Positions 28,993 through 59,746 of a stretch of 64,000 nt of DNA are shown piece by piece; the first letter of the stretch is position 1; each line of letters starts with the position of its first letter. Location: positions 150,298-214,297 of the forward strand of contig JACRJQ010000007.1 in assembly GCA_016215405.1 (NCBI GenBank). The letters are read 5' to 3'. Origin of the DNA: Candidatus Tayloriibacteriota bacterium (GTDB taxonomy: Bacteria; Patescibacteriota; Minisyncoccia; Phycocordibacterales; UBA6065). Position numbers and translations under genes: made by a program. The notes below the pieces were generated by a model. It worked only from the letters and a program-made list of their open reading frames with translations. It had not been told where the DNA came from and made no database searches.

Positions 28993-29086
28993 TCATTTTG
29001 GGTGCCGTCGTGGCGGGAATTAGAAATAGAATGAGGTTTGAAAATCCAGCCATTCCCTCTCTTAAATGAAATAATTGAACCTCGTC

Positions 29087-31505: not shown

Positions 31506-31511
31506 ATTTGC

Positions 31512-31609: not shown

Positions 31610-31625
31610 ATATCACTTTGATATC

Positions 31626-32156
31626 TCAGGTCATCAAAGCGATGAGCTTCTCAAGGTCCACAATTTTTTTCTTTTGCGAATCGACGAGTGTTTTCGGAAA
31701 TACTTTCTCATATTCAGTAGGGTCGTTGCGGCGTTTATGGTCGATGTATTTTGATTCGAATTCCGACTTGCACCATGCTGATGTTTTGTCTGAATAAGAC
31801 TTCCCGTCATTAAGTATTGAGAGAAGCACTGCCTCCAAGCAGGGTGTAATCTCAATAAGCTCAATGCCTCTTTCTTTTGCTTGCTTTCGAGCTCGCCTAA
31901 TTTCCTCTTCGCCCTTATCGTTATCAAGGACAACGACCTTGCGATCAAAGGCCCCTGGAATCTTGTCCGCATCCATAACCACATTCTCTGGTGCGCCCCC
32001 TTTGCCTTTTCGGATAGTAACGGCAACCCCAGTATCCCTCGAATAAATAGATTTGAGATATTTAAGGAATACCTCTTCGCACATCCCCTCCCCAAAAACC
32101 AAAAGCATCCTACTTGCGACACGTCGTTTATGCTTTTGTGGATTTGAGCGAGACAT
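31626..32156 (-). CDS. RloB-like / DUF4276-like Toprim-type small protein (partner of an AAA_21 ATPase)
   Basis: N-terminal MLLVFGEGMCEEVF (E-G-x-x-E) and VVVLDNDKGEEE (DxD) in Toprim-like spacing; 176 aa; 9 nt downstream of the ATPase gene. Confidence 0.5.
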   Translation of the reverse strand: MSRSNPQKHKRRVASRMLLVFGEGMCEEVFLKYLKSIYSRDTGVAVTIRKGKGGAPENVVMDADKIPGAFDRKVVVLDNDKGEEEIRRARKQAKERGIELIEITPCLEAVLLSILNDGKSYSDKTSAWCKSEFESKYIDHKRRNDPTEYEKVFPKTLVDSQKKKIVDLEKLIALMT

Positions 32157-32164
32157 GAACGACT

Positions 32165-33370: not shown

Positions 33371-33596
33371 GTTTTTATTGTGGCCTTTGCTTAATCGGTA
33401 CTATACCTCTATATACGAATATTGCAAGCTTTTATACATAAAATTGTATAAAACGACACAAAAATAGTTAATTGAATACGGCTTAAGAAAGTAGGGCTTT
33501 ATTAAGCCACCAGATAAGGGTCATTTGAGAGGGTGCGCCAGAATTATAAAAGCCAAGAGAGTACTCGTGAAAACTCTTGGAAGGGTGTAATTGATT

Positions 33597-43548: not shown

Positions 43549-45297
43549 CTATTCGGTTACGACCCTTAGCACCTCTTCTATGGTCGTGAGGCCTTGAGCC
43601 GCGCAGAATATGCCGTCTTCGAGCATGGTGACCATCCCCTCCTTCTTCGCCTGCTCCTCTATCGCAGCGGAGGTCGAACCCTTCATGATGAGCTCGCGGA
43701 TCGTCGGCGTCATCTTGAAGACCTCATGGATGCCGATACGGCCCTTATATCCGTCGTTTTCAGGCGTCGCCTTGGGCGAACCGAACATGACGTTGTCCCA
43801 GCCGTCTTTAGGACCTATGATCTTCTCCGCCCGAAGGAGCTCGAGCATACGGTCGAGGTTCACGACCTTGGAGAGAGCCCCGAGCTCGGCCTTGGAAAGG
43901 GCGCGGCGCTCCTTGTTATCGGCGAGCCTGCGGACGAGGCGCTGTCCGATCACCACAGAGAGCGTCGAGACGAGAAGGAACGGCTCTATCTTCATGTCCA
44001 TGAGGCGAGGGATCGCTCCGGCAGCCGAGTTCGTGTGAAGGGTCGAGAGCACGAGGTGTCCGGTGAGCGCGGCATTCACGGCCAGAGACGCCGTCTCGTT
44101 GTCGCGGATCTCACCCACCATGATGATGTCCGGGTCTTGGCGGACGAGAGAGCGAAGCCCTGTCGCGAAGGTAAATCCGATGTCAGGACGGACCTGGGTC
44201 TGGTTCACGCGAGGCATCTGGTATTCGACAGGATCCTCGACGGTGGAGATGTTCACGTCGGGCGTATTCAAGATATCGAGGACAGTATAGAGCGTCGTGG
44301 ACTTTCCCGATCCCGTAGGGCCTGTCGCGAGGATCATTCCCGTCGCGAGCTTCGTCGCCGCGTGTATGCGCTCGAGGGCCTCGCCGTGGAAGCCTAGGTG
44401 CTCGAGCGTGAATCCCGAGACCGATTCGCGGAGAAGTCGCATCACGGTCTTCTCTCCGTAAAACGTAGGCATGACGGAAACGCGCAAAGACACCTTCTCG
44501 CCGTTCATCTCGACTTTGAATCGCCCGTCCTGAGGCAGCCTCTTCTCGTCGAGCTTAAGGTTAGAGAGCACCTTTATGCGGGCGGTTATAGAAGTCTCTG
44601 CCTGCTTAGGCAAGACCATCGCGTCATGGAGGAGCCCATCGATGCGATAGCGGACGAGGAGCTCCTTCTCCATCGGCTCGACATGGATGTCGGAAGCGCC
44701 CTGAAGGATGGCGTGCTTTAGGAGGGTGTCGACGATGCGCACGACAGGCAGGTCTTCAGCGAGCTTCTTAAGGTCACCTTCAGACGCTTTGCCCCCGACC
44801 TCTTCAGAGAGAGCCTTGATGCTCGCGGTCTCCTGCTTTATGAGGTCGCCGAACTCGGCCTTGAGGCTCTTTTGGTACTGAAGGAGCGCCGATTTTATCG
44901 AATCGGTATCGGTGAGCCGAGGGAGGATCCGCAGGCCGACCTTCTTCTTTATGAAATCGATGGCGTGCAGGTCGTCGGTGTCGAGCATGGCCACTTCGAG
45001 CGAATCGGGCGTCTTCTTGAACGCGACGATATTGTGGTTCCTCGCGATAGGCTCGGGGATGAGTGAGAGCACGTCGAAATCTATCTTCTGGCCACGCAGG
45101 TCGACGAAGGGGATCCCGAGGATATACGCCTGCATCTTTCTGAGATCGTCCTCCGAGAGCTTGCCCTGAGAGACGAGTATCTCTCCGAGGCCGGTCTTCT
45201 TCGATCTCGCTTCGGTCTCGGCGACGGAGATGTCCTTCTTCGAGACGAGGCCCGAATCGACGATGAAACTCTTCAGCTGGCTTTCCTCGATGTACAT
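43549..45297 (-). CDS. pilB: type IV pilus assembly ATPase PilB (GspE family)
   Basis: Walker A GPTGSGKST, Asp box, Walker B, His box (LSTLHTN); N-terminal GSPII domain; 582 aa. Confidence 0.92.
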   Translation of the reverse strand: MYIEESQLKSFIVDSGLVSKKDISVAETEARSKKTGLGEILVSQGKLSEDDLRKMQAYILGIPFVDLRGQKIDFDVLSLIPEPIARNHNIVAFKKTPDSLEVAMLDTDDLHAIDFIKKKVGLRILPRLTDTDSIKSALLQYQKSLKAEFGDLIKQETASIKALSEEVGGKASEGDLKKLAEDLPVVRIVDTLLKHAILQGASDIHVEPMEKELLVRYRIDGLLHDAMVLPKQAETSITARIKVLSNLKLDEKRLPQDGRFKVEMNGEKVSLRVSVMPTFYGEKTVMRLLRESVSGFTLEHLGFHGEALERIHAATKLATGMILATGPTGSGKSTTLYTVLDILNTPDVNISTVEDPVEYQMPRVNQTQVRPDIGFTFATGLRSLVRQDPDIIMVGEIRDNETASLAVNAALTGHLVLSTLHTNSAAGAIPRLMDMKIEPFLLVSTLSVVIGQRLVRRLADNKERRALSKAELGALSKVVNLDRMLELLRAEKIIGPKDGWDNVMFGSPKATPENDGYKGRIGIHEVFKMTPTIRELIMKGSTSAAIEEQAKKEGMVTMLEDGIFCAAQGLTTIEEVLRVVTE

Positions 45298-45371
45298 GTG
45301 AGAGTGAAAATAAGCGCTCGGGCCAAGACGCCCTGTGATATAATCGTCTACATTATATCTTATAATCCGCT

Positions 45372-46100
45372 ATGACACATACCACCCACAAGGAAGAATG
45401 GCTCGCCATGCCAATCGCCGTTATCATCGCCGGAGGCCTCATCGCCTTAGGCCTCTTCTACGGCCTTAAGTCTTCAGGATCGCCCGCGCAAGGGGACGCC
45501 GTCGCGCAGAACCCTCAGCAAGGGCTCGGCGAGGATTTCACGGGCGAGCTCGCTCCGGTGAGCGCTTCGGAGCATATCCGCGGCAACCCGAAGGCGAAAG
45601 TCGTCATCGTCGAGTACTCGGACACCGAGTGCCCGTTCTGCAAGATGTACCACAACTCGATGAAGGAGGTGATGTCGAAATACGAGTCGTCAGGCGACGT
45701 GGCGTGGGTATACCGCCACTACCCTATCGACCAGCTCCATAAGAAGGCGCGAAAGGAGGCGGAAGCGACCGAATGCGCTGCGGAGCTCGGTGGAAATACG
45801 AAATTCTGGGCCTATATAGACAGGCTCTTCGAGGTGACCACCTCGAACGACGGCCTCTCGGAGAGCGAGCTTCCTAACATCGCCCAGTATGTGGGCCTCG
45901 ACAGGACGGCCTTTACGAGCTGCCTATCGAGCGGCAGGACAGCGGCGAAGGTTCAGGCGCAGTTCGACGGCGGAGCGAAAGCAGGGGTCAGAGGTACTCC
46001 TCATAGCTTCATCGTCACGAAGGACGACAAAGTAGCCCTCAGCGGCGCGGTCCCGTTCGCAGAGCTCGACAAGATGATCCAAAACGCTCTCTCGAGATAA
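45372..46100 (+). CDS. DsbA-like thioredoxin-fold thiol:disulfide oxidoreductase (membrane-anchored)
   Basis: N-terminal TM, CPFC active site (YSDTECPFCKMYH), Thioredoxin_4-like pattern. Confidence 0.8.
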   Translation: MTHTTHKEEWLAMPIAVIIAGGLIALGLFYGLKSSGSPAQGDAVAQNPQQGLGEDFTGELAPVSASEHIRGNPKAKVVIVEYSDTECPFCKMYHNSMKEVMSKYESSGDVAWVYRHYPIDQLHKKARKEAEATECAAELGGNTKFWAYIDRLFEVTTSNDGLSESELPNIAQYVGLDRTAFTSCLSSGRTAAKVQAQFDGGAKAGVRGTPHSFIVTKDDKVALSGAVPFAELDKMIQNALSR

Positions 46101-46827: not shown

Positions 46828-49107
46828 CTACGGACACCCGCTTACATAGCCGCAACTCTGATCCCAGTCGACGCATTCGTATGAGCAATTGCACTCGTAC
46901 CATTCGTAACCGTCGCTACACCAGCTGCAGACCTCATCGGAATTCACGCAATACGGTTCCCCGCACACATATCGGTCCGCCACGTTCGCCGGAGCCGAGA
47001 CCGAGCATGTGCCGGCGCAATTACGGGTTCCGCTATTCGTCTGGCCGCAATTGTTCGCAGACGAAGTGCAGGACTGGCCGTAATAAGACGGATCAGAAGC
47101 CGTGCACGAGCCGTATGCGTTCGTCGTCCCATAGATGCAACCGCCTGGAGAGGACCAACAATAGTAAGGCGCCTGCACGGCCGAGCCGTCGCCATTGACG
47201 CACCCTGTGCAGCCGTATGTTCCATAATTGCAGCCTGCGCCATTGCAGACCGAGCAGGACTGACCGTAATTCGAAGGGCTCTGCGCTGAACAATTGCCAT
47301 ATCCGTCGGTTAGACCGAAGGAGCACGCGCCTGGAGAAGACCAGCAGGTATAGGGCGCCTGCACGGCCGAGCCGTTAGGATTGACGCATGATCCGCCACA
47401 GTTATATGTTCCGTAATTGCATCCCATGCCGGTACACGCCGAGCACGACTGGTTATAGTTCGCTGCGCAGCATGACTGGGTATTGCAGGCCTGAGAGCTC
47501 GCCGGCGGCAGCATCATCGTGCAGATTCCCCCTTCTTCGTACACCCCATCGTCCCGAAGGCAGCGCACCGTCCTCGTCTGAGTGCCGCCTCCGCAGGAAG
47601 CCGAGCAAGACGACCAGCCGCCCAGCTCCCAAGAATAGGAGTGTGCGACCCAGCATGAGCCGTTCGAATAGGGCGTAGATCCCCATGAACCGTTATAGCA
47701 GGTAGACGTCCTCGATACGGACGAGCAGCTCGACGGCCAATAGACATAGCTCGATGAATACGTCGTGCACGACCCCCCGTCAGACACGGTCCCGCAAGCG
47801 CTCGAATAGCACGAGCAGCCTTGGGTATTGCAGCTCTGGCTCGTCGAAGGCTTCCCTCCTCCGCAGTAGGAGTCGGATACGGATATTCCGTCGCTGCGCT
47901 CGCACCACACGCCCCTCGATTGGCTGCCTCCTCCGCAGGACGCCGAACATGATCCCCAGCCGTCGTAATTCCAATAGTAGTCATAGCCGACCGAGCACGA
48001 ACCGTTCGGATAGGGCGATGCGCTCCAAGAGCCGTTACTGCAAGTCGAGGTGCGGGAAACAGACGAACACGACGAAGGATAGCTGACAGAGCTCGAAGAA
48101 TACGAGGTGCAGGAAGCGCCGTTCGACGCGGCGGAGCATGCGCCGGAGGCGCTGCAGCCGCTTGAGCAGCTGCCATAAGCGTACGGAGAGGCGCTCCACG
48201 TGCCGTCGCTACAGGTGGAGGTGCGTGCAACCATAGAACATGAGGCTCCCGACGGAGCGGTCGAAGAATAGGTCGTGCAGGATCCTCCATGCGCGGTCGT
48301 ACCGCAGCCGCCCGAAGCGGAGCAGGACCTGTAGCTCTGAGAGCAAGAGCTGTAGGCCCCCGGCGTCACGGTCCATGCCCCGTTCGAGCACGTAGACGAG
48401 ATAGACGCGCCCGAGCAGGTGGCAGGAGACGTCGCCGAGCTCGCGGTGTAGCTCGTGCAGGAAGCGCCGTTCGACGCGGCGGAACATGCGCCGGAGGCGC
48501 TGCAGCCGCTCGTACAACTGCTGTATACATATGGCGACGCGCTCCATGTACCATCGCTACAGGTAGAGACCCGAGAGACCGTGGAGCACGATGCGCCCGA
48601 AGGGGAATTCGAAGAGTATGTGGTGCAGCTTCCGCCATGAGCCGTCGTGCCGCAGCCGCCCGAGGGCGCGCATGAGCGATAGCCCTGCGAACAAGAGCCG
48701 TAAGCGGCGGGAGTGACGGACCATGCCCCTCCTACGCACGTCGCCGTCACTGATATCGCCGCGCACGTGGTGGGAGACGTTGCCGAGCTCGCGGTGTAGC
48801 TCGTGCATGTGCTTCCCAAGGCAGCGGCGGCGCACCCCCCTGACGCAGCGCACCCGCAGGGAGATTTCGTCACTCCTGTAGGGAGGTGGTCATAGAAGGA
48901 GGCCCATTCTTCTGCCGTCTTCGTAGGGATAAATATCCTGCTCCCTGTATCGTTTGTTATGACATAGCATGTCCCGATCTCGTTCACCGAGATAGCCGAA
49001 CCTGCATTTAGAGAGTACGACGTCGCCGCGTCGGATGCCGTAGCAACTGCAAAAAGAGAGAGGCATAGCGCCAGGCCTTTCGCGATCGCGGCTATTTTAG
49101 TTGGCAT
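46828..49107 (-). CDS. large Cys-rich secreted repeat protein with thrombospondin-type-1-like (TSP1) repeats
   Basis: Signal peptide (MPTKIAAIAKGLALCLSLFAVATA); two or more ~45-aa Cys modules (GGCGTTAHGGSCTTYSS...); two TSP1-like units WGSCSASCGGGSQSRGVWC and WSSCSASCGGGTQTRTVRC; nucleotide-level tandem repeats. The ORF extends to 49188. Confidence 0.6.
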   Translation of the reverse strand: MPTKIAAIAKGLALCLSLFAVATASDAATSYSLNAGSAISVNEIGTCYVITNDTGSRIFIPTKTAEEWASFYDHLPTGVTKSPCGCAASGGCAAAALGSTCTSYTASSATSPTTCAAISVTATCVGGAWSVTPAAYGSCSQGYRSCAPSGGCGTTAHGGSCTTYSSNSPSGASCSTVSRVSTCSDGTWSASPYVYSSCTSGCSASGACSAASNGASCTSYTASSATSPATCSGASISSTCSNGAWTVTPGAYSSCSQSYRSCSASGGCGTTAHGGSCTTYSSTAPSGASCSMVARTSTCSDGTWSASPYAYGSCSSGCSASGACSAASNGASCTSYSSSSVSYPSSCSSVSRTSTCSNGSWSASPYPNGSCSVGYDYYWNYDGWGSCSASCGGGSQSRGVWCERSDGISVSDSYCGGGKPSTSQSCNTQGCSCYSSACGTVSDGGSCTTYSSSYVYWPSSCSSVSRTSTCYNGSWGSTPYSNGSCWVAHSYSWELGGWSSCSASCGGGTQTRTVRCLRDDGVYEEGGICTMMLPPASSQACNTQSCCAANYNQSCSACTGMGCNYGTYNCGGSCVNPNGSAVQAPYTCWSSPGACSFGLTDGYGNCSAQSPSNYGQSCSVCNGAGCNYGTYGCTGCVNGDGSAVQAPYYCWSSPGGCIYGTTNAYGSCTASDPSYYGQSCTSSANNCGQTNSGTRNCAGTCSVSAPANVADRYVCGEPYCVNSDEVCSWCSDGYEWYECNCSYECVDWDQSCGYVSGCP

Positions 49108-49261
49108 CTGTTTTCCGTTATCTACGCTTGCTGCCTTGATAATCCCCAACCTCAGCTCTGAAGGGATCCAGAGCTTGCGACAAGGCACGAGCCCTCACAA
49201 TGAACATTATATACCAATAGTTTCGAAAAATTGAAACTATCGGCGGACAGCCGGCCGAAGG

Positions 49262-49627
49262 CTACTCGACGACGCTTATGGTACCGCGTATCCGAGGCTT
49301 GAGATGGTCGTGGTAAGTCCACTCGCCTGCTTCTTCGAACACGAACTCCCATTCCTCTCCTGGGCCTACGGGCTCTCGCGGATCGAACTCGGGGTAGAGC
49401 TCGTGCGTAGGATGCAGGTTCGAGGCGGGCCAAAGGTAGGCGTCGTCGGTAGCGTTCACGAACCTCACCGCCTCGCCTCGCTTGATGGTCGTCGTTGCTG
49501 GAGAGTAGCCTTTCTCCGTCATGGACATGACAGCGCCCACTCGAACATCTCTGTCTGAAAGGAGCGATGCCCCGAGAGCAGATGCCGCCGCAAGGGTTAA
49601 CAAGGCGATGACCAGCTTCTTACGCAT
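49262..49627 (-). CDS. secreted cupredoxin-like domain protein
   Basis: Signal peptide; ...RFVNATDDAYLWPASNLHPTHE...GEEWEFVFEEAGEWTYHDHLKPRIRGTISV, shared with the N-terminal domains of the genes at 52182 and 54780. Confidence 0.55.
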   Translation of the reverse strand: MRKKLVIALLTLAAASALGASLLSDRDVRVGAVMSMTEKGYSPATTTIKRGEAVRFVNATDDAYLWPASNLHPTHELYPEFDPREPVGPGEEWEFVFEEAGEWTYHDHLKPRIRGTISVVE

Positions 49628-50108
49628 GCTTTTTCTTGAGAAAGAGAATGATAAGGGCTCCTACGACCGCGCCCAGAAGAGCAGAGGCGGATGCGACGAG
49701 AAAAGAAGCCTTAGATCCTTCAGGCGCCCCCACCGAAAACGGAAACTCTCCTTCGGCTATCGTCTCGGAGCCGTCCTGAAATCGCACGAAGAGCGAGTAC
49801 GACCCTTCTTTCGGAAAGACGATGCTGAATCCGGGCTTTCCGAATTCTCCGTAGGCGATCGGCCCGGCAAAAACGGTTTTCTTCCCTTCCTCTATCTTCA
49901 CCCAAGCGCTCGTGAAAGGGATCTCGTCCCCTCCAGAGGCGGGAGAGACCGCGATGTCATACCGGACGAGCTCTCCGGCCACCGGCTCTTGGCTATAGCC
50001 GATATCGAACTTGTGGTCTCCGACGACCGTCTCTATAGAAGGCCCTCCGGCGTGAGCGAAAGCGAAGACCGGTACAAAAGCGAGCAAGAAGAGAGAAGCT
50101 TTTTTCAT
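49620..50108 (-). CDS. hypothetical secreted protein with C-terminal TM anchor
   Basis: Signal peptide, beta-rich body, C-terminal hydrophobic helix plus KKKHA. Confidence 0.45.
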   Translation of the reverse strand: MKKASLFLLAFVPVFAFAHAGGPSIETVVGDHKFDIGYSQEPVAGELVRYDIAVSPASGGDEIPFTSAWVKIEEGKKTVFAGPIAYGEFGKPGFSIVFPKEGSYSLFVRFQDGSETIAEGEFPFSVGAPEGSKASFLVASASALLGAVVGALIILFLKKKHA

Positions 50109-50244
50109 TCGCCTATTCTAGCCTATTTTCAAATCTGCGGGTATTTGAAGCGCCTTAGCCCTTACCTTGCGGCAGGTGAGATGTACCGTATAATTATCGG
50201 GACGTCTAGGCTTAGATTATTAATAAGGTCTGACGCGATCTTGA

Positions 50245-50820
50245 ATGCAAAATAGCAAAAAAGCCATCATCGTCGTTCTATTACTAGCAATCGCCGGTCT
50301 AGGGTACGCGGTGTACTCTAGGCAGGCTGCGCCGGAAGCTCCGACAGCCCAGGTTCAGAACGAGAACCCTACGCCTGCCGGAAACGTCGACGCGACGGGA
50401 GTGAAGGAACAAGCCGCCTCCGCCTCGAAAGTCTCCCTCGCTGAAGTGAGGAAGATCCTAAGCGACAGGGGAGCCAGCCCGACAAAGGAGGCGCTCGACA
50501 GATTCTCCACGAGCGTAACGGCGGCAGCGGTGAGGTCGAGCGTCCTCGATATCTCTGGCTGCGTCGCGACGCCTAACGTGATCGAGGTCTTCGCCGGAGA
50601 GCCGTTCACCGTGAAAAATACCGACAACTTCCCGCACGTGATCCATTACGGCGGAAAGAACCCTGAAACTATCCCTGGGAGCACGGAAAGGAAGATCACC
50701 CTCGAGTTCCCGAACGCGGAGAAAGGCGTTGCTGGAGTCATGTCTCCTTTTACCTGCGACACGGACAAGACTGAGGAGCCTATCGGCATATTCAGCGTAG
50801 TCCCCCGCTCAGACGAATAG
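50245..50820 (+). CDS. membrane-anchored protein with C-terminal small beta-sandwich (cupredoxin/azurin-like) domain
   Basis: CVATPNVIEVFAGEPFTVKNTDNFPHVI...FTCD resembles the C-terminus of the gene at 58454 (CVANPTVAMVAFGQKITFVNDD...GYGCDASQRAIGM). Confidence 0.4.
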   Translation: MQNSKKAIIVVLLLAIAGLGYAVYSRQAAPEAPTAQVQNENPTPAGNVDATGVKEQAASASKVSLAEVRKILSDRGASPTKEALDRFSTSVTAAAVRSSVLDISGCVATPNVIEVFAGEPFTVKNTDNFPHVIHYGGKNPETIPGSTERKITLEFPNAEKGVAGVMSPFTCDTDKTEEPIGIFSVVPRSDE

Positions 50821-50832
50821 CTCTAGCCACGA

Positions 50833-50858
50833 AAAATCCCCCGCTTGGGGGATTTTTC
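50833..50858. terminator. bidirectional rho-independent terminator
   Basis: aaaaatccccc-gctt-gggggattttt. Confidence 0.75.
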
Positions 50859-50879
50859 ATTTCGGCTTCTTCGATAAGG

Positions 50880-52145
50880 CTATCGGGGCGCTTTCGCGTG
50901 GCACTTGTCTTTCCAAGGATCCGGAAGGGCGCCGCAGAACGCGTAGAAGGCATCGCTCCCGGCATGGAAATTATATGTGGAATACTTGAGAAGCTCGAGA
51001 TAGCAGAGATTCTCCGGGTCGTTCGGCGCGGCGCGAGCGCAGAGCGAAGCGGACGCCGCGCTGTTTCGATAGTCTGTCTCTATGATCCTCGATGCTGCCT
51101 GCGCGAAGCAATTGCCCCGAAACTCCCTCGGCATCCCCTCGCAATAGCTCGCGATTTTATCTTCGTCGAATCCCATCTGAGAAGTGAATACGTACATGAG
51201 GGCGTTAAAGCACCTCTGTCTCTCGGGTTCGGCCGGGAGCGCTTCGCAGTGCGCGATGAGGTTATTCGGCTCGAAAAGCTCTTTTCTGAAGAGCGGCCAC
51301 GACTCCGACCAGCACGAGCCCCTTTCACGTCCGCTGTAGCCGCCGCAGAACGCCTCCACCTTATCGAGGCCCACCTCCTTTCCTTCTATGAGAGCGAAAT
51401 CGTCTGGTTCGAGAGGCTGGAATATCTGCATGAACGCGCCGTCGAAGCAGAGCTGGGAAAAATCCCTCGTGCCTTTGAAGGCGAGCTCCTTGCACAACGA
51501 AAGGGAGCGGTCGATATCGGCGTCGGTCACGTACATGAATAGATGGCCTAAGGCGTGATAGCAGCTCGCCTGCTCGAGGCCGGTCGGGGAGAATCCTTCG
51601 CGCCTCTCGCACACGCTCGCGAATTGAGGCTTATACTTCTCGATCTCCTCTGGAGAGAGCGATTCGCGCCTGAACCTCTCCTGGAACGCTCCGTGGATGC
51701 AGCCGTTCGAGCAGACTCCCGAAGGGCACCTCTGTATCACCGTTTGCCACAGATCGGGATCCTTAGCGGTCTCCTTGGCCGAGAGCTTGTGTCCGAGGAC
51801 GTGGCAATACCGATAGCTCGTATCGATGTCTTGGACGATTCTCGTTACCTCGAACGCTTCCTCCATAGATATCTCGTCCATAAGCTTCGGAAGCTCCTCG
51901 TCATAGCAAGTCGGCTTGTACGAGGCGCCAGCACACTCCTCGACGACGCTTTGCGCGTACGAGACGAAATCTCCATGCTCTTTTCGAGAGGGACCTCCGG
52001 AGAGAAGGACCGCGAGCTCGAAGCAGACGAGCGTAGCGAGGACGAGAGCTGTCGCCGGAAAAACCGCTTTCTTCCCTTTCGGAAGCCTTTGAGTGAGCGG
52101 ATGAAAGCGCTTCATGAGCGCATGCATTCTTTTATGGGTATTCAC
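50880..52145 (-). CDS. Cys/His-rich repeat protein, paralogue 1 of an unrecognised extracytoplasmic family
   Basis: N-terminal TM; repeated motifs YCHVLGHKL, SCYHALGHLF, QLCFDGAF, QRCFNAL, NLCYLEL. Confidence 0.55.
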   Translation of the reverse strand: MNTHKRMHALMKRFHPLTQRLPKGKKAVFPATALVLATLVCFELAVLLSGGPSRKEHGDFVSYAQSVVEECAGASYKPTCYDEELPKLMDEISMEEAFEVTRIVQDIDTSYRYCHVLGHKLSAKETAKDPDLWQTVIQRCPSGVCSNGCIHGAFQERFRRESLSPEEIEKYKPQFASVCERREGFSPTGLEQASCYHALGHLFMYVTDADIDRSLSLCKELAFKGTRDFSQLCFDGAFMQIFQPLEPDDFALIEGKEVGLDKVEAFCGGYSGRERGSCWSESWPLFRKELFEPNNLIAHCEALPAEPERQRCFNALMYVFTSQMGFDEDKIASYCEGMPREFRGNCFAQAASRIIETDYRNSAASASLCARAAPNDPENLCYLELLKYSTYNFHAGSDAFYAFCGALPDPWKDKCHAKAPR

Positions 52146-52181
52146 AGCAAGATTATAGCGTACCGGAGACTGAGAGTCTGC

Positions 52182-53639
52182 TTAGGGCTTATAGCAGTCT
52201 TCCCTGCGCAGAGGATCGACTCCGGAGCAGATCGCCTTCTGCTTCTCTTTTGAATAGTAGGCCCGCACGCTTCCGAACGCCGCTTCATAGCAAGAGTCCT
52301 GCTCCCCTTTCGACATTCCCGGGGTCTCGCAGAACGCAATCGCCGCTTCATATTCTCTCCCTGGCGGCCCGAACTCCATAAGCCCCGAAGGTATTCCTTG
52401 GACGCACGGGACGACGAGGTCTTCTCTCGCAGCCTTACAAGAGCGCACCGTAGACTCGAATTCGTCCTCGTAGGGCTCTTTGAAATTCGACGGAAAGACC
52501 CCCGAAAGACTTCTCATCGCGAGCGCCGAATACTGGAGATCGTCTTCGATCTCTTCGACGTATTCTATGGCGCGGGATAAGTCGCTGTTAGAGAGGGTGG
52601 CGACGAGAGTGTTCATCTCCTGGTAGCACGGATTCTTCACCCGAAACTCCTTCCAGTTTTTGCACACCTCGAACGGCCCCCTATCGTCGAGCGACAGATT
52701 ATAGGAGCGCTCGATGAACATGAGCGCGATCGAGTTAAAGACGCCGGAGACGCACCTATAGAAATGAGGCTCAGTGGGATCAACCTTGTTACAGAGAGCG
52801 ATGCCTGGAGAGGCGAGAGCTACAGGATCTCCCCACGCGCGCGGGTCGCCTCCGTCTGCAGCGCCGTGCCCTATGCCGTGGTAGCAGGCCCCTTCTGCGT
52901 TAGCGCTCTCCGAAGCGAGGAGCTTCCCTGCCTGCGCGCAGAACTCCCTCGCCCCGTCGACGTCTCCGGATATCTGGAGCATCTCTTCCATGAAGCCGTG
53001 ATAGAAGCCATAACTGCAATACGATGTCTTCGCGGAAAGCTTTATCTCTTTACCCTCGTCGAAGGCGAGATAGGCGCTCTTGCCGAGGATGTGGGCGACG
53101 GAGTGGCATGAATCCCGAAACCTCGGATCGGTATCGTAGAGCTCGGCCATACGGTCAAGCGCGGCGTCGAGGCCGCCTTTTTTAAGAGCTGCGACGACGT
53201 CTGCTTGAAAGCATTCCCCGGGCGTCGAGCTGGCCGATTTGCAATCAGGCACGACAACCTTGCCTGTCGAGCTTAAGACCACGATCTCTCCCGTCTGCCG
53301 CGAGGCTAGATGGTCATGGAATTTCCATATGCCGGGCTTTTCGAAAGAGAACGACCAAGACCCTCCTGCCTCGACGGGCATCTTGGGGTCGAATTGCGAA
53401 TATATGCCATGGCTCGGATGGAGATCGGATGCCGGCCAGAACGGATTATCCGACTCGTTGCGGAAAGTCACTCTATCGCCAAGGGACACCACAAGCCTTC
53501 TCGGCGAAAATCCGCTAGCGTCATAGGCTATCTCTCTCGTCTTCGAGAGAGAAAAATCGTCTCTGCTTAAGACGAGATAGGCGGCGATCGCCGAGATCGC
53601 GAGGACGAGGATGGTTGCACCGATGAGGGCTTTGCGCAT
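52182..53639 (-). CDS. Cys/His-rich repeat protein, paralogue 2, with N-terminal cupredoxin-like domain
   Basis: TM, then ...FWPASDLHPSHG...GIWKFHDHL..., then SCHSVAHILG, YCSYGFYHGF, GACYHGIGHGA, NPCYQEM, SCYEAAFG. Confidence 0.6.
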   Translation of the reverse strand: MRKALIGATILVLAISAIAAYLVLSRDDFSLSKTREIAYDASGFSPRRLVVSLGDRVTFRNESDNPFWPASDLHPSHGIYSQFDPKMPVEAGGSWSFSFEKPGIWKFHDHLASRQTGEIVVLSSTGKVVVPDCKSASSTPGECFQADVVAALKKGGLDAALDRMAELYDTDPRFRDSCHSVAHILGKSAYLAFDEGKEIKLSAKTSYCSYGFYHGFMEEMLQISGDVDGAREFCAQAGKLLASESANAEGACYHGIGHGAADGGDPRAWGDPVALASPGIALCNKVDPTEPHFYRCVSGVFNSIALMFIERSYNLSLDDRGPFEVCKNWKEFRVKNPCYQEMNTLVATLSNSDLSRAIEYVEEIEDDLQYSALAMRSLSGVFPSNFKEPYEDEFESTVRSCKAAREDLVVPCVQGIPSGLMEFGPPGREYEAAIAFCETPGMSKGEQDSCYEAAFGSVRAYYSKEKQKAICSGVDPLRREDCYKP

Positions 53640-53648
53640 TATCGTTAT

Positions 53649-54698
53649 TTATATGATGATCTCCGATTGTTCGAGGCAGTACGCATTCTCCGTCGCGGCA
53701 AGGCCCTGGCACGGCTCGCCCTTCCGCTCTCGCGAAGTCGGCTCCGCGAAAAAAGACCACGCCGCGCCGGCTCGGCACAGAAGCTCGCCTTCTCTGTCGG
53801 GCATCTTCGAGCACGCGGCGATCGATCTGACCGCGTCATACCTCTCATTTGCCCCGATCGAATTTCCGAGGCCTTTATAGCACGCCTCCCTCTCGCGCCC
53901 CGAAGGCGCGAGAGCGCAGAATTCTCCCGCTCTGGCCTGATCGCCCCCGAAGACGTTCATAAGCCATGCGGGCAATTCAAAATAGCAGGCCTCCGCGTAT
54001 GGTTTCGGTACCGAATCGCACGGGTAAAGGGGTCTCGAGGCGTCGAACTCCCGAGGCTCTGCCCCCTCGAGGCTCTGCATGGTCCGAAAGTTATATTCCA
54101 TAAAGACGCCCGATGTGCACCCGCCGATAGGCCCTTTCCATGAGAGCTTTCCGCAGATATCGAGCGCCTCGACGAGAGCGTCCTCACCCAGAAAACCGAG
54201 CACGCCGTGCCCTATCCCGTGCGGGCACCCGAGCCCTTTCGGGCCCCACTTCTTCACGCACTCTTTATCGAGCTCGAACACGACGTCAGGGCCGTTCTCC
54301 GTTATCGCCTTGCCGAAAAAGCTGTGATAGCAGCCGAAGGCGAAAGCGCTGTCGCAAACAGCGACTCCTGCAATGCCCTCTTTCTCATAGATAAGCTCTC
54401 CCATGATATGCGCGAGCGTGTGCGCTACGCCGAATTCCTTATCCTTGTTGCCCTCTTTGAAGAGCTCGTAGGCCCTTTCCGCTCCTTTATCCTCTATCTC
54501 CTTCTTCCAAAGCCTCTTCTCCTTGGTGTAATGGCCGGACCAGAGAGGATTGAGGGAGTCTTCGGGCCTTGCGTCCGCGCCTTCGCCCCGTATGAGGATC
54601 GAGGCCTCGAAGGCGACGATCGCGATAAGAGCGAGAGCGACGGAGATGAAAACCCTATGCGATGAAGCCCTTCGAAGCATGCGAGAGACAAATGACAT
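53649..54698 (-). CDS. Cys/His-rich repeat protein, paralogue 3
   Basis: VCDSAFAFGCYHSFFG, GCPHGIGHGV, GCTSGVFMEYN, EACYFELPAW, EACYKGLG. Confidence 0.6.
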   Translation of the reverse strand: MSFVSRMLRRASSHRVFISVALALIAIVAFEASILIRGEGADARPEDSLNPLWSGHYTKEKRLWKKEIEDKGAERAYELFKEGNKDKEFGVAHTLAHIMGELIYEKEGIAGVAVCDSAFAFGCYHSFFGKAITENGPDVVFELDKECVKKWGPKGLGCPHGIGHGVLGFLGEDALVEALDICGKLSWKGPIGGCTSGVFMEYNFRTMQSLEGAEPREFDASRPLYPCDSVPKPYAEACYFELPAWLMNVFGGDQARAGEFCALAPSGREREACYKGLGNSIGANERYDAVRSIAACSKMPDREGELLCRAGAAWSFFAEPTSRERKGEPCQGLAATENAYCLEQSEIII

Positions 54699-54779
54699 GC
54701 ATGAATTATATTCTATTTGCCAGAGGCCACAACGTTTGCCCGCTATTTTTTCGGGCCTCGGTTCTGTATAATTTGATGG

Positions 54780-56291
54780 ATGAAGCGAATCCGCCCACTC
54801 CTGTCGAGAGTCGCGAGACCGAGGCTGCTCCTCGCCTTCGCGGCGGCAGTCCTACTTTGCGCGGGAGGCGTCTATGCATCTTTACGCGGAACCGAAGGTC
54901 CGCGCGAATATACCATCGAAGCCAAAGAAGGCTCCTTCTTTCCCTCGAAGATCGCTCTTATCGTAGGGGACAAGGTGACCTTTAAGAACCTCGAATCTCA
55001 TTCGATCTGGCCGGCGTCCGACCCGCATCCGACCCATGAATTCCTCGCTGCCTTCGACCCAGGCGCGCCTATCCCCCCAGGAGGCTCTTGGACCTACAAA
55101 TTCTCCGAGACCGGGACATGGAGGTTCCACGACCACCTCGACGTGACGGTTCAGGGCGAGATACACGCTCTCGGCCGCACATCCGAGAAGACGGTCAAAA
55201 AATCGGCCTCGGGCGGATACTGCGACGGCAAATGCTTCGACGACCTGGTCAAAGAGACCGTCAAAGAGAAGGGCATCGACGCCGCCTACGCTCTCTTTCA
55301 AGAGACCTATGACTCTGGAAACCTGCCGCGAAGCTGTCATTGGACGGCCCACAAGATCGGAGAAGAGGCGTATCACCTCTTTAAAGAAGGGAAGGATTTC
55401 GCGATAACACAAGCCACATCCTACTGCGCATACGGTTTCTACCACGGATTCCTCGAAGGTCTCCTGCGCGATAATCCCGATCCTGCCTACGCGCTTACGT
55501 TCTGCGACAAGGTCGAGGAAAAGCTCGGTCGGTTGGGATTGCAAAACTGCTACCACGGTATAGGGCACGGCTTTACCGAAGATCCTCCGGATCCAAAGGT
55601 CGAGGGAGATTTCGAAGGGATGATAGAACCAGGCATAAAGATGTGCGAGTTCCTCTTCGGAAAGGATTTCAACAACCTCAACCTCTGCCTCACAGGCGTC
55701 TATACCGTTCCCGCGGGCTTCGCCTCTGATGGTACATACGGGCTTTCGATCGATCCCAAGGATCCGTTCGCGCTCTGCAAGGACGAACCTCTGCGCTACA
55801 AAAAAGCCTGCTATGGGGAATTCGCGCCCAAGCTCGATAAGATACTCGAAGGGGACATGTCACCCCTGCCTTCCTACGTCTCGTCTATAGACGACGATCG
55901 GCTCAAGAGGCTCGTCGTCTGGGTCGTACCGTCGGTCATGATGTCGCGAGACGTCACGTCCGCGGATCATTCGAAATATGTAGATTCATGCCGCCAAGGA
56001 TTCGAGGGCAGATACAGGCTTATCTGTTGGGGAGGTTCCATTCTCGGCTTCTTCTCTCATGGAAAACCCGAAAAGGAATACGAACCAGCGCTCGCTTTCT
56101 GCGCCTCTGCTTCATGGAAGACCGAGGGAGAGAGGACTTTCTGCTACGGCGAGGCGTTCAGACAGATGAGGCAGAACTACTCTATCGAGAAAGTAAAAAG
56201 CATTTGCCCCCTCGCCCCGAAAGCCTATGAGAGGCTCTGTCTCGATGAGAAAGGAGAGCATACCTCCCCTTACGACGACCCATCATTCTAA
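54780..56291 (+). CDS. Cys/His-rich repeat protein, paralogue 4, with N-terminal cupredoxin-like domain
   Basis: TM, then ...IWPASDPHPTHE...GTWRFHDHL..., then SCHWTAHKIG, YCAYGFYHGF, NCYHGIGHGF, KACYGEFAP, TFCYGEAF. Confidence 0.6.
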   Translation: MKRIRPLLSRVARPRLLLAFAAAVLLCAGGVYASLRGTEGPREYTIEAKEGSFFPSKIALIVGDKVTFKNLESHSIWPASDPHPTHEFLAAFDPGAPIPPGGSWTYKFSETGTWRFHDHLDVTVQGEIHALGRTSEKTVKKSASGGYCDGKCFDDLVKETVKEKGIDAAYALFQETYDSGNLPRSCHWTAHKIGEEAYHLFKEGKDFAITQATSYCAYGFYHGFLEGLLRDNPDPAYALTFCDKVEEKLGRLGLQNCYHGIGHGFTEDPPDPKVEGDFEGMIEPGIKMCEFLFGKDFNNLNLCLTGVYTVPAGFASDGTYGLSIDPKDPFALCKDEPLRYKKACYGEFAPKLDKILEGDMSPLPSYVSSIDDDRLKRLVVWVVPSVMMSRDVTSADHSKYVDSCRQGFEGRYRLICWGGSILGFFSHGKPEKEYEPALAFCASASWKTEGERTFCYGEAFRQMRQNYSIEKVKSICPLAPKAYERLCLDEKGEHTSPYDDPSF

Positions 56292-57277
56292 CGAGGACCG
56301 GCTCCGACTATCTCCCCTCTACAGCTTTGCCCTACTTCCGTTCGCGCCTCTGCGCATATAAGGAGGGCGCCATCTTTTAGTCCTAAGGCGCCGAGCCTCA
56401 TCGCGGCGCCTTTATAGCAGAGGTCCTGCCCTCCTCTTTCGCTTATCATCGCGCACCGCTCCTTTATCTCGGAAACGGAGCGGTCCACAGACTCTACGAC
56501 CACGCTTCCCCAGCCCAGATAGCACGCGTCTCTCTCGGGATTCCCTTTCGCCTCAGAGCACATATTGCCGACTCGGGCAGGATCGTCGGGAAAGATACCG
56601 CTCCACCAAGCGCCCATCTCGAAATAGCACGAGCGCCTGAAATCGAGCGATGAGAGCTCGTCGCAAGGAGCGTGCATATCCCCGTCGACTGGCCGCCTGA
56701 AGTCGAACGACGCTATGCCTCCGTCGAAGCGGATAGAGTTGTTATATTCCATGAATACGCCTGAGGTGCATCCGTAGAGAGGATCGGGCTGGTCGGTCTT
56801 CCTGCAGAGCTCGAGGGCTGGGACGAGCTTGTTGCGGCCCATGTGCTCCATGATCCCGTGGCCGATGCCGTGCTTACATCCTGTATCGCCCGTACCATAC
56901 CTTTCGGTACAGGCTCGGGCGAGCTCCTCTATTATTCCGACGCCCTTCTCTGCGATCGCCCGGCCTATAAAGCCGTGATAGCAGCCGAAAGCGAACTCCT
57001 CGTCGCAGGTCGCGAACCCATCAGATCCCATGATCTCGTAGAGATCTCTCCCGACGTCATGCGCCGCATTGTGCTGGGTATCGAAATCCTCTTTAGCGTA
57101 TCTCGCCTTAAACTCCTGATAGGCCTCTGCGGCTCCGACCTTCTCTGCACGCGCACGCAGGGCAAATGTGCTCTCGGTCCCCTCTCGCCCGTATAACAGG
57201 GCTACAGCGCAGACGGCCAGGGCGACCGCCCCAAAAAAGACGGCTCGCGCGCTTATTGTAAAAGCTTTCTTTGACAC
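56288..57277 (-). CDS. Cys/His-rich repeat protein, paralogue 5
   Basis: TCDEEFAFGCYHGFIG, GCKHGIGHGI, GCTSGVFMEYN, SCYFEMGAW, DACYLGWG. Stop overlaps paralogue 4's stop by 4 nt (convergent). Confidence 0.6.
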   Translation of the reverse strand: MSKKAFTISARAVFFGAVALAVCAVALLYGREGTESTFALRARAEKVGAAEAYQEFKARYAKEDFDTQHNAAHDVGRDLYEIMGSDGFATCDEEFAFGCYHGFIGRAIAEKGVGIIEELARACTERYGTGDTGCKHGIGHGIMEHMGRNKLVPALELCRKTDQPDPLYGCTSGVFMEYNNSIRFDGGIASFDFRRPVDGDMHAPCDELSSLDFRRSCYFEMGAWWSGIFPDDPARVGNMCSEAKGNPERDACYLGWGSVVVESVDRSVSEIKERCAMISERGGQDLCYKGAAMRLGALGLKDGALLICAEARTEVGQSCRGEIVGAGPR

Positions 57278-58452
57278 GATTGAGAATATTCTTCAGGCAC
57301 TGCGGCGCAGATCGCCTTACGGCCCTCGGAAGACAAATACGAGGAGGCATTACCAAAGAGGACGTCATAGCATGATGACTGGAGATCGGAGGGAGAGAGC
57401 TCACAGAAGCGCAAAGACGCCTTTGGGTCGTTCTCCCCTCCCCAGAATATAGAGCTCAGGGCAGATCCCATGCAGTCGATCTTTCCGTCTTCGGGCTTCG
57501 CGAGAGAGCACCATTCATAGACTCTCCTTAGCTGCTCGTCCGACATCCTGTCGATGGCACGGATGTCCCTGTTCTGAGCGAGGACGACGAACTCCTTTCC
57601 GAACCCGCCGAAACAGGCGCGCCTGTCGCCGTTAGTAAGAGGCTCACAGTATGTAAAAGCCTCCTTAAAATCCGCGGGCAAGGGATTCCCGAGATTCCCT
57701 CCTGCAGAGACGAAGAGATGAGGCGTTATGTACGTGTAGCACATGCCGCGGGCGGCCTCGTTCATGAAATCAGCCGAGCAGGGATAGAGAGGGTCTTCGG
57801 CCTTGAAATATTTCTTCGATTTCTCGAGCCACATCTCCCTGTCATGGACCCCTCCTATCATCTCCATGATCGTGCCCCCGACACACTCGGAATATTCGCG
57901 CCCTTTAGTCCCTGACTTCTCGCACATCTTCACAGCTAGAGGTAGCTCGTATTCGTTATACGCGAGGACGCCGTGCCCGAGCCCGTGGAAGCACATCGTG
58001 TAGGCGCCAGGACCTCCGGGAGCCTGCTTGCAAAGCTCGACGATCTCACCGAACGACTCAGGACCTTTCTCAAGAAGGGTCCCGATCACGATAGTGTGCG
58101 AGCAAGCATTCCTAAAATCGTCGGTACAGCTCAAGATACCCTCTGCCCCCTGCTGCTCGTAGAGGATGTCGCCTACGATATGGCCGAGAAGGTGCACGTC
58201 TATATTAGGCGGCAAGGGCGCCCTTTTAAGCACCTCGAACGCGTAGAGGGCGCCCTTATCCTCCGCGAGGCTAGAAAAATAGCTTGAGAGGTCCTTGAAC
58301 GACGCGTCTTTCGGTATCTCCATCGCCTCTGCGTATAGAGCGTCGCTGTCGCCCGAGAAAAGATAGGCGACTAGACAAACGTTCGCAAGGACGAGGAGGG
58401 CTATGGCGATCCCCGCAGACCCAGAGAACCATTTGATCGCCTTGCGAACCAT
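57253..58452 (-). CDS. Cys/His-rich repeat protein, paralogue 6
   Basis: VHLLGHIVGD, MCFHGLGHGV, ECVGGTIMEM, GMCYTYITP, RACFGGFG, SCYDVLFG. Confidence 0.6.
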   Translation of the reverse strand: MVRKAIKWFSGSAGIAIALLVLANVCLVAYLFSGDSDALYAEAMEIPKDASFKDLSSYFSSLAEDKGALYAFEVLKRAPLPPNIDVHLLGHIVGDILYEQQGAEGILSCTDDFRNACSHTIVIGTLLEKGPESFGEIVELCKQAPGGPGAYTMCFHGLGHGVLAYNEYELPLAVKMCEKSGTKGREYSECVGGTIMEMIGGVHDREMWLEKSKKYFKAEDPLYPCSADFMNEAARGMCYTYITPHLFVSAGGNLGNPLPADFKEAFTYCEPLTNGDRRACFGGFGKEFVVLAQNRDIRAIDRMSDEQLRRVYEWCSLAKPEDGKIDCMGSALSSIFWGGENDPKASLRFCELSPSDLQSSCYDVLFGNASSYLSSEGRKAICAAVPEEYSQSCQRKLLQ

Positions 58453-58453
58453 G

Positions 58454-58945
58454 CTATTCGGTGACGACGATCATACCGATCGCCCTCTGAGAGGCGTCGC
58501 ATCCGTATCCGTATATGCCTTTACCCTTCTCGAAGTCGGCCACGATCTCCTTCTTGGATTTTGCCGGGACCGAATACCTATCCTCGATGTTGAAACCTAT
58601 CATGTGTTCGACGGAGTCGTCGTTTACGAAGGTTATCTTTTGTCCAAAGGCCACCATCGCGACCGTCGGATTCGCGACGCAGGTCGATATATTGATCGTG
58701 TCTGTCTTGACCGCCGCTTCCAAGACCCGCTCCGCATGCTGCCTCTTCCTCTCCTCGAGGTCGTCGACCGCAGGAGTGTTCAATATCGCCTCGACATCAG
58801 TCCCTACCGTCTGGCCTTTATCTGCGGACGGCGAGGACGATCTGCCGAGAGAGGACCCCGGATTCTTCTCGACATAAATAAGGTAGCCAAGGACGAGGGC
58901 TGCGAGGACGAGACCACCTATCGTATATTTTGCTGTATTGCTCAT
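58454..58945 (-). CDS. membrane-anchored small cupredoxin/azurin-like beta-sandwich protein
   Basis: Start at MSNTAKYTIGG (TM); C-terminal CVANPTVAMVAFGQKITFVNDD...HMIGF...GYGCDASQRAIGMIVV. The ORF's first 42 codons (to 59071) were rejected. Confidence 0.45.
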   Translation of the reverse strand: MSNTAKYTIGGLVLAALVLGYLIYVEKNPGSSLGRSSSPSADKGQTVGTDVEAILNTPAVDDLEERKRQHAERVLEAAVKTDTINISTCVANPTVAMVAFGQKITFVNDDSVEHMIGFNIEDRYSVPAKSKKEIVADFEKGKGIYGYGCDASQRAIGMIVVTE

Positions 58946-59029
58946 GGTTTTGCTTATTAAGCTCCGATAATTATAGCATTCCGAGCCGGCCCAAGGGTGC
59001 GTGATATAATCATGCGGACCATCTAACCT

Positions 59030-59746
59030 ATGCGCGCAATGAACCATCTCCTCCGTCGACTCTTTCCACACGCCGAGGCCTGGCTCACACCTGCGGCGAT
59101 CGTGCTAGGCTCGATCATCATCGCCTCGAGCATAGCCTTAAGCGGCGAAAAGAGAACGATCCCTCCGCAGCCTGGACGCGAGCCTGTCACGACCCTCAAG
59201 ATACCCGCCCTCAATCCCTCAGACCACGTCTTGGGAAATCGAAATGCCCCTGTGATCATGATCGAGTACTCCGATACCGAATGCCCGTTCTGTAAACGCT
59301 TCCATTCTACTCTCCAAAAGATAATGAAAGAGTACGGGAGCGAAGGCGATGTCGCTTGGGCCTTCCGTCACTTTCCGGTACACAAGAAGTCCATGAAAGA
59401 AGGACATGCTCTCGAGTGCGCCGCCGAACTTGGAGGAAACGAGGTGTTCTGGAAATACGCCGACCGGATATTCGAAGAGACCTCCTCGAACGACAGCCTC
59501 GATCTCGGCCTCCTGAGGCCTTTTGCGGCCGATCTCGGCCTTGACGTCGAGGCTTTCGGCGAATGCCTCGAAAGCGGGAAATACGATGAGAAGATGACCG
59601 ATCAGAGGAGCGAGGCCGACGCTGCGGGAGCAAAAGGAACGCCATGGACAGTCATAGTCTCTAAGGGGCGATGGATCCCCCTCAACGGAGCGGTGCCGTA
59701 CGAGACCGTCGAATCGATCGTAAAAGAAGCCCTCCGCGCGCGCTAA
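59030..59746 (+). CDS. DsbA-like thioredoxin-fold thiol:disulfide oxidoreductase, paralogue 2
   Basis: TM, then YSDTECPFCKRFH...GDVAWAFRHFPV; strongly similar to the 45372 gene product. Confidence 0.8.
   Translation: MRAMNHLLRRLFPHAEAWLTPAAIVLGSIIIASSIALSGEKRTIPPQPGREPVTTLKIPALNPSDHVLGNRNAPVIMIEYSDTECPFCKRFHSTLQKIMKEYGSEGDVAWAFRHFPVHKKSMKEGHALECAAELGGNEVFWKYADRIFEETSSNDSLDLGLLRPFAADLGLDVEAFGECLESGKYDEKMTDQRSEADAAGAKGTPWTVIVSKGRWIPLNGAVPYETVESIVKEALRAR

Follow-up and report, generated by a model that had tools for sequence, protein, structure and literature searches.

Helicobacter HcpA-E, encoded by paralogous genes, are exported proteins built of alpha/alpha repeats with a period of ~35 residues and one disulfide per repeat (C-x7-C). 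EfeO joins an N-terminal cupredoxin to a C-terminal M75/imelysin helical metal-binding domain (PMC9174327), and in Bacillus YcnI, which has a C-terminal transmembrane helix, Cu(II) is bound by the N-terminal His together with a Glu and a Trp close by (PMC8424229). Much of bacterial diversity belongs to the Patescibacteria (the Candidate Phyla Radiation, CPR), whose lineage-specific membrane protein families mostly lack annotation (PMC6744442). The stretch analysed here as a whole (the window) comprises 64,000 nucleotides of a Candidatus Tayloriibacteriota bacterium (assembly GCA_016215405.1, contig JACRJQ010000007.1, positions 150,298 to 214,297 of the forward strand). It holds six adjacent genes, termed A to F, of a family that we find to be large, unannotated and restricted to Patescibacteria, with products modelled as alpha-solenoids and a tentative link to copper. 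In window coordinates, the six genes are as follows.

50880-52145, minus strand: A, the A-type solenoid gene (421 aa, 21 Cys)
52182-53639, minus strand: B, the B-type gene, with an N-terminal anchor, a Cys-less cupredoxin (~53274-53513) and a solenoid (485 aa)
53649-54698, minus strand: C, the C-type solenoid gene, whose product was the reference protein for modelling (349 aa)
54780-56291, plus strand: D, the D-type gene, with an N-terminal anchor, a Cys-less cupredoxin (~54927-55163) and a solenoid (503 aa)
56288-57277, minus strand: E, the E-type solenoid gene, of a C-like subfamily (329 aa)
57253-58452, minus strand: F, the F-type solenoid gene and first family gene of a conserved operon (399 aa)

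An earlier note, made from the letters of this DNA, had described six tandem paralogues with one N-terminal membrane anchor each, two of them fused to a cupredoxin-like domain. All six reading frames, of 329-503 aa, were found, with a 25-bp overlap of E and F at the end of F. Their paralogy was borne out by an all-against-all BLASTP of the six proteins (B-D 36% identity, E 9e-83; C-E 39%, E 2e-55; C-F 28%, E 8e-23; other pairs 20-28%, E 1e-4 to 1e-14) and by a family hidden Markov model (HMM), whose matches over the 64-kb window were exactly A to F. At each N-terminus a short basic stretch precedes ~20 hydrophobic residues. This points to a signal anchor, with most of the chain predicted to be extracellular, and supports the extracytoplasmic location proposed before. 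The cupredoxin-like domain (WPASD.HP[ST]H...W[KR]FHDHL) was likewise found in B and D, where it is 46% and 40% identical, respectively, to cup1, a stand-alone protein encoded nearby. The six proteins had also been called rich in both Cys and His. They are Cys-rich (3.3-5.0%) and not His-rich (1.8-3.0%); it is the positions of the histidines that stand out, not their number.

Searches for described relatives agreed with the statement that the repeat could not be assigned to a known Pfam family. When the six proteins and their partners were scanned against Pfam and NCBIfam, nothing was returned over the repeat region, and a Pfam scan of all 63 sequences in the C-type alignment found no recurrent family, a single LANC_like match at E 0.1 being dismissed. 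Sel1, TPR and HEAT profiles matched neither the six window proteins nor the 63 family members at E <= 1. A search of PDB sequences with a C-type profile found nothing relevant, and one with an 86-sequence profile of all subfamilies found no match even at E 10. Profile searches of Pfam, NCBIfam and PDB sequences thus placed the repeats in no well-characterised family, and full-text literature searches did not find a description of it. The 637 homologues of C are all named 'hypothetical' and all come from Patescibacteria-type sources. When the family HMM was searched exhaustively against 1.84 billion cluster representatives (50% identity), 6,975 members were found at E <= 1e-3 and 1,996 at E <= 1e-30, many of the best matches holding two to nine copies of the domain. 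When the C-type alignment was used to scan genomes, one per species, 78 distinct loci were obtained, most of them labelled as Patescibacteria (Paceibacterota, Kaiser-, Colwell-, Yanofsky-, Doudna-, Nomura-, Gottesman- and Levyi-bacteria); the remaining labels are probably placeholder or mis-binned names.

The fold was modelled with AlphaFold2 on an alignment of C and 60 homologues, in which 30 columns are invariant, 14 of them Cys and 5 His. The model is all-alpha (pLDDT 92, pTM 0.85), with the anchor and an N-terminal helical region followed by alternating shorter and longer helices. In this model the first Cys of each pair lies at or just past the end of an outer helix and the second in the first turns of the following inner helix, giving a unit pattern of C-x(8-12)-C-x-x-G with a period of 32-45 residues, mostly 34-35. 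The units match each other weakly yet consistently in register when compared as profiles with hhalign (P 3e-5 to 1e-3), R4-R5 giving P 3e-5, and R3-R6, R5-R6, R5-R7 and R6-R7 P 4e-4 to 1e-3. Thus, on the predicted structure, the protein is an alpha-solenoid of seven helix-loop-helix units of ~35 aa. The earlier description of six to eight ~40-aa units around an invariant Cys followed by Tyr/Phe-His-Gly holds as far as the presence of repeats is concerned; the units are, however, seven in number, ~35 aa long and with two Cys each, and the C[YF]H motif is limited to units 1 and 2. The conservation is not compositional, since 15 columns are invariant across 86 sequences that are 16-40% identical to C. 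When the C model was compared with the PDB by Foldseek, matches to HEAT, ARM, TPR and PPR scaffolds reached at best E 0.06, with TM of 0.23-0.29. A LanC-like (alpha/alpha)7 barrel had been considered on account of the C-x-x-G and CHG-like motifs and was rejected because no LanC structure was present among the fold matches.

Conservation and covariation were counted over 438 family members from 79 loci aligned to the family HMM. In C the Cys pairs are 115/123, 147/158, 182/194, 227/238, 261/273, 296/308 and 330/341, and across the family alignment the partners of all seven are co-present or co-absent. Pair 115/123 has both Cys in 268 sequences and neither in 160, and pair 261/273 has both in 313 and neither in 119; a single Cys occurs in none of these 428 and 432 sequences. 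The number of Cys past the anchor is even in 87% of sequences, and Cys 158, 182, 194, 227 and 238, as well as G163, are each 98% conserved. As the partners are gained and lost together, unlike independent metal ligands, we infer from the alignment that the pairs are structural disulfides and not metal sites. The proposal that the Cys form part of a metal or redox site is not supported by this pattern, and a thiolate copper store of the Csp type appears ruled out by the pair covariation together with the even Cys counts.

In contrast to the Cys, the histidines form a signature of their own. The invariant residues of C, encoded at ~54207-54422, are H93, H97, H125, H160 and H164, and their conservation over all subfamilies is 96%, 94%, 96%, 94% and 94%, respectively. 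Among the 86 divergent sequences mentioned above, H97, H125 and H160 are invariant and H93 and H164 at least 90% conserved. They occur as HxxxH on helix 1, C-x-H on helix 2 and C-x-H-G-x-G-H-G on helix 4. M200 is kept in the F, C and A types and is mostly Asn in the B and D types, and E201 is kept only in the F and C types, A having mostly Gln. Judged by helix register, three consecutive inner helices running in parallel carry H125, H164 and residues 200/201, each 7-8 residues from the helix start, with H160 one turn off, and these residues could share one pocket in the modelled fold. Mean-field direct coupling analysis of 704 sequences, applied to contacts between the His helices, gave gap and misalignment bands as its top couplings. 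Because five His are conserved across all subfamilies, the pattern suggests a putative metal centre or active site.

The solenoid shares with Hcp/Sel1-like proteins the alpha/alpha repeat, the ~35-aa period, a Cys pair per repeat, export and a paralogous gene family. It differs in a Cys spacing of 8-12 as against 7 in Hcp, in its five invariant His, N-terminal anchor, fixed multi-subfamily operon and cupredoxin fusions, and in its restriction to Patescibacteria; no Hcp structure was among the fold matches listed. This likeness raises an alternative in which the proteins of these epibiotic bacteria are a non-enzymatic surface scaffold or adhesin, offering a stable surface that binds ligands of the host cell or the envelope. 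The conserved His would then have a structural part, in a Zn clip or a network of hydrogen bonds, for instance. The surface location, the paralogue family and the giant multi-copy fusions fit such a role, as do neighbours that include a Cys-rich protein with TSP1 repeats, Hint-domain surface proteins and a PilB-type ATPase, the binding scaffolds that head the Foldseek matches, and the loss of H160 or H164 in some B and D members (81-90% conserved there). Adhesins, however, usually evolve fast, whereas here orthologues are 50-66% identical, keep a fixed order and fall into one-to-one subfamilies; the five His stand at 94-96% across subfamilies that are otherwise ~20% identical, and the genes are tightly linked to a His4Asp2 cupredoxin and an N-terminal-His protein. 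We therefore regard a scaffold as unlikely.

The relationships among the six genes were resolved by comparison with other loci. The best orthologue elsewhere and the best paralogue in the window are, respectively, 66% (L005) and 21% identical for A, 62% (L005) and 36% for B, 56% and 38% for C, 62% and 36% for D, 47% and 38% for E, and 64% (L005) and 29% for F. D has orthologues of 60-62% identity in loci L074, L069 and L025, and E has orthologues of 43-47% in L057, L069 and L074, in each of which a D-type gene is paired with E. Since orthologues are 47-66% identical as against 21-38% among the window siblings, the six genes are old, distinct subfamilies (F, C/E, A, B and D) and there has been no recent local expansion. 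The closest orthologues are 56-66% identical in protein, and synonymous sites are therefore saturated. A view built on the evolutionary reading of the earlier note, of a recent expansion driven by diversifying selection or dosage, with Cys and His as Csp-like thiolate metal or redox sites, has the tandem genes and the high Cys content in its favour. It is contradicted by one-to-one orthologues whose gene order is kept across Patescibacteria and by Cys that behave as obligate pairs, and we consider it very improbable.

The gene order itself is strongly conserved. Between 1 and 15 family genes (median ~5) lie within 10 kb of each match. Of 353 pairs of adjacent family genes, 339 share a strand; the median gap is -4 bp, and 59% of pairs overlap. 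Among the successions, F then C leads with 46 cases, ahead of C then A (42) and B then A (33); F and C are adjacent in 50 of the 79 loci, and F-C(+)-A occurs in 29. The recurring order is a g205-like gene, F, C, A, optional B and D types, a g162-like gene for an N-terminal-His beta-sandwich, and a Cys-less cupredoxin, which the window keeps on its minus strand with E, D, B and g191 interleaved. In one complete 721-kb chromosome, ten family genes form a single locus of 13.3 kb, or 1.8% of the sequence, and in P0135 (712 aa) an A-type protein is joined to a C-type protein in a single chain. The fixed order, the overlapping genes and the fusions together point to assembly of the subfamilies as a hetero-oligomer. 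The functional unit is thus wider than the six genes, extending over ~49262-59071, and includes or adjoins the following features.

49262-49627, minus strand: cup1, a stand-alone anchored Cys-less cupredoxin of 121 aa, overlapping g162 by 8 bp
49620-50108, minus strand: g162 (162 aa), with a signal peptide, a predicted mature N-terminal His (AFA|H19), a beta-sandwich and a C-terminal transmembrane segment
50245-50820, plus strand: g191, membrane-anchored, with a degenerate cupredoxin-like C-terminal domain; a paralogue of g205
50837-50852: a bidirectional terminator-like hairpin between the 3' ends of A (minus) and g191 (plus), from a consensus scan only
58454-59071, minus strand: g205, the gene that opens the conserved operon; its anchored product has two conserved Cys and a degenerate cupredoxin-like domain
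59030-59746, plus strand: a DsbA/MdbA-like thiol-disulfide oxidoreductase, flanking the region
45372-46100, plus strand: a second DsbA-type gene, flanking the other side of the region

Among these partners, cup1 and the N-termini of B and D are assigned to the cupredoxins (PF13473, Cupredoxin_1) by profile match. Their scores are all sub-threshold, at 26.0 bits for cup1, 16.8 for B and 14.6 for D where the cutoff is 27, and the database protein P0277, identical to cup1, and many orthologues carry a precomputed PF13473 annotation. The domain also gives a weak Cu-oxidase_3 match, and among PDB sequences cup1 matches domain 1 of NirK best, at E 2e-6, with HPTH on HGTH and YHDH on YHCH, which places its two pairs of His on the HxxH and HCH ligand motifs. 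In contrast to NirK and the multicopper oxidases, the cupredoxin here is a single domain; the further two, needed to build type-2 and type-3 sites, are absent. The flanking His that bind inter-domain coppers in oxidases and nitrite reductases are retained. The domain is present in 65 of the 79 loci and in 43 of the 48 loci of at least 15 kb, and is fused to 86 of 435 family members, mostly of the B and D types. Its consensus is fWPASd.HP.H...FDp...G.W.yHDHl, a His4Asp2 motif in which H72, H75, H106 and H108 are conserved at 95-98%, D82 at 97% and D107 at 92%. Over 145 domains the type-1 Cys position is occupied by Asp in 133 (92%) and by Cys in 2, and no His or Met is conserved after it, so that the His-Cys-His-Met ligand set is absent. 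Since the type-1 Cys is replaced by Asp, the domain is, to judge from its residues, no ordinary blue-copper electron carrier, and it might instead bind Cu(II) in a type-2-like site.

In B and D an extracytoplasmic Cupredoxin_1-type domain precedes an all-alpha domain whose conserved residues are of metal type, an order that recalls EfeO (PMC9174327), and an iron acquisition system like EfeO/EfeM and P19-Ftr could be envisaged, in which the cupredoxin and helical domains oxidise and bind iron and the beta-sandwich serves as P19. However, the helical domain of B and D is unrelated, being a disulfide-stapled solenoid with no Peptidase_M75/imelysin match and no HxxE motif noted, and the cupredoxin differs in its His4Asp2 motif. 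Neither an EfeU/Ftr1 permease nor EfeB is found among the conserved neighbours in the 79 loci, and P19 is not the best fold match. Iron acquisition thus appears improbable.

In g162 the predicted signal peptide ends in Ala and is directly followed by His in 32 of 33 homologues, so that this His would be the mature N-terminus. E26, D35, Y38 and W69 are conserved at 91-97%, and the AlphaFold2 model is a beta-sandwich (pLDDT 83). A mature N-terminal His on a beta-sandwich, the arrangement looked for in CopC/YcnI proteins, is therefore predicted for g162. In contrast, the CopC (PF04234) and YcnI (DUF1775) profiles gave no match at E <= 10 in nine g162 members, nor did PDB profile searches, and compared with CopC/PcoC/CrdA and YcnI, g162 has no sequence match, no second conserved His and no CopD or YcnJ partner. 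Its likeness to YcnI, in signal peptide, N-terminal His, beta-sandwich and C-terminal transmembrane helix, is a resemblance in architecture, not membership. The g162 protein is 100% identical to one from a Candidatus Taylorbacteria metagenome-assembled genome, which places the window in a genome of the Parcubacteria/Paceibacterota type. In two loci (L016, 12156-13175; L020, 6193-7242) a g162-type protein and a Cys-less cupredoxin are fused, with transmembrane segments between them.

The two remaining partners, g191 and g205, are paralogues (25% identity, E 8e-12), and g191 matches the g205-family HMM at E 8e-40. The actual start of g205 is probably Met43, at 58945, and its orthologues directly precede the F-type gene in L001, L003 and many other loci. 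The flanking DsbA genes match the DSBA profile (Pfam Thioredoxin_4 at E 8e-25 and 7e-23, DSBA at E 1e-16 and 2e-14). MdbA-like oxidoreductases are enriched in CPR genomes (PMC6744442), and the assignment of the Cys pairs to disulfides agrees both with this enrichment and with the flanking genes. The gene at 59030-59746 is probably a general folding catalyst for these disulfide-rich exoproteins. As a hint to function, which the earlier note had taken it to be, DsbA fits oxidative folding, but the adjacency occurs in only ~7 of the 79 loci and is not a conserved feature.

Taken in context, the reading that we favour, tentatively and with a little less than even confidence, is that the locus encodes an extracytoplasmic hetero-oligomeric metalloprotein complex, specific to Patescibacteria, that handles copper. 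Each subunit would be tethered by its single N-terminal helix with the alpha-solenoid exposed outside, and the DsbA/MdbA system would form the disulfide staples on the Cys pairs. The conserved His would build a metal centre, and at the membrane's outer face the subfamilies would form a hetero-oligomer of fixed stoichiometry. The bound metal would be copper, with g162 acting as a Cu(II) chaperone of the CopC/YcnI type and the cupredoxin domains serving as Cu(II)-binding rather than electron-transfer modules. On the cell surface, the whole complex might then capture copper, hold it or process it by redox chemistry, or act likewise on a substrate at a copper site. Copper is suggested as the metal because a cupredoxin with conserved His accompanies most loci and because the architecture of g162 is YcnI-like; the conserved N-terminal-His beta-sandwich protein, and the presence of a cupredoxin domain in 65 of the 79 loci, strengthen the link. 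Of the metal-binding or redox function proposed at the outset, the metal or copper link thus stands as the best available inference, while the part given to the Cys is not supported.

Several observations weigh against copper handling. By simple helix register, H93 and H97 lie perhaps ~15 A from H125/H160/H164, and the loss of H160 or H164 in some B and D members, as mentioned above, has to be set beside this. The type-1 Cys of the cupredoxin is almost always Asp, and the g205 and g191 domains have no conserved metal ligands apart from the two Cys. No copper transporter (CopA, CopD), Ftr1/EfeU permease or metal regulator is found among the recurrent neighbours in the 79 loci, an ArsR-type gene adjoining the cluster in one genome only, and six to fifteen paralogues per locus are unusual for metal-homeostasis systems. 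Rare fusions to GH3 and esterase domains also point elsewhere.

These fusions bear on a further alternative, namely that the proteins are polysaccharide or cell-wall enzymes in which the solenoid is catalytic, or binds the substrate, for glycan or ester cleavage and the His are catalytic. P0130 consists of nine family domains with a C-terminal Glyco_hydro_3, P0190 has an Abhydrolase_2 esterase replacing the cupredoxin, and conserved aromatics surround the His helices (FAFGCYHSFF, GVFMEYN). Such domains occur, however, in only two of seven long proteins scanned, and P0130 has exact internal duplications and may partly be an assembly artefact; we give little credence to an enzyme of this kind. 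The architecture of P0130 (3580 aa) is unusual in itself, with a vestigial signal-peptide-like segment before each of its nine domains and Glyco_hydro_3 plus LRV/HEAT repeats at its end; P0190 is 681 aa long, with the esterase in the cupredoxin's place.

Within the copper-handling reading, a more specific proposal is that the solenoid, the Cys-less cupredoxin and the N-terminal-His protein form a copper enzyme or relay of an undescribed extracytoplasmic type, confined to Patescibacteria, with a histidine metal centre on disulfide-stapled repeats. Its metal centre might be completed across the domain interface by the four cupredoxin His, whose positions are those of the inter-domain copper sites of nitrite reductase and multicopper oxidases; added to four or five solenoid His, they would come close to the eight-His ligand set of a trinuclear cluster. 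We hold this proposal to be doubtful.

Other genes recur beside the family. The cupredoxin end of the window cluster is adjoined by a PilB-type T2SSE ATPase and a DsbA gene (43549-46100), and the same arrangement is seen in L005, L006, L010 and L034. At 46828-49188, minus strand, lies a gene for a secreted protein of 786 aa, rich in Cys, Ser and Thr, that has two thrombospondin type-1 repeats (TSP1_ADAMTS, E 6e-19), a domain unusual in bacteria, and related fragments adjoin the cluster in L005, L006 and L034. A ~320-aa multi-pass membrane protein that matches no Pfam family is found near the family in 11 loci (L025, 14381-15346, and ten others), often with a 160-aa partner.

Elsewhere in the window, a low-GC island at ~29000-33400 (0.40-0.49 as against 0.57) adjoins tRNA-His, tRNA-Leu and tRNA-Val. 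It codes for SIR2_2, a KAP-family NTPase, an RloB-like protein and an AAA_21/AbiEii-type ATPase, and on this content it resembles a defence island against phages that was acquired. An Rfam tRNA match within it (31511-31609, minus strand; 99 nt, 55.6 bits), which was not called by ARAGORN, overlaps the 5' end of the KAP NTPase reading frame and could be an intron-bearing or remnant tRNA marking an integration site.

The solenoid family thus has neither a Pfam or NCBIfam model nor a solved relative, despite its ~7,000 clusters at 50% identity. It is defined by seven covarying Cys pairs, five near-invariant His and an operon grammar shared with a Cys-less cupredoxin and an N-terminal-His protein, and this signature offers an experimentally tractable hypothesis on its role at the cell surface. 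Even as a non-metal scaffold, the family is a clean candidate for a new Pfam entry and for structural work. If metal binding is true, it would bring to bacterial copper biology a new protein scaffold and a natural Cys-to-Asp cupredoxin, and if the copper relay is true, these organisms, which have almost no respiratory machinery, could use it to reduce O2 or reactive oxygen species, or to take metal from the host surface.

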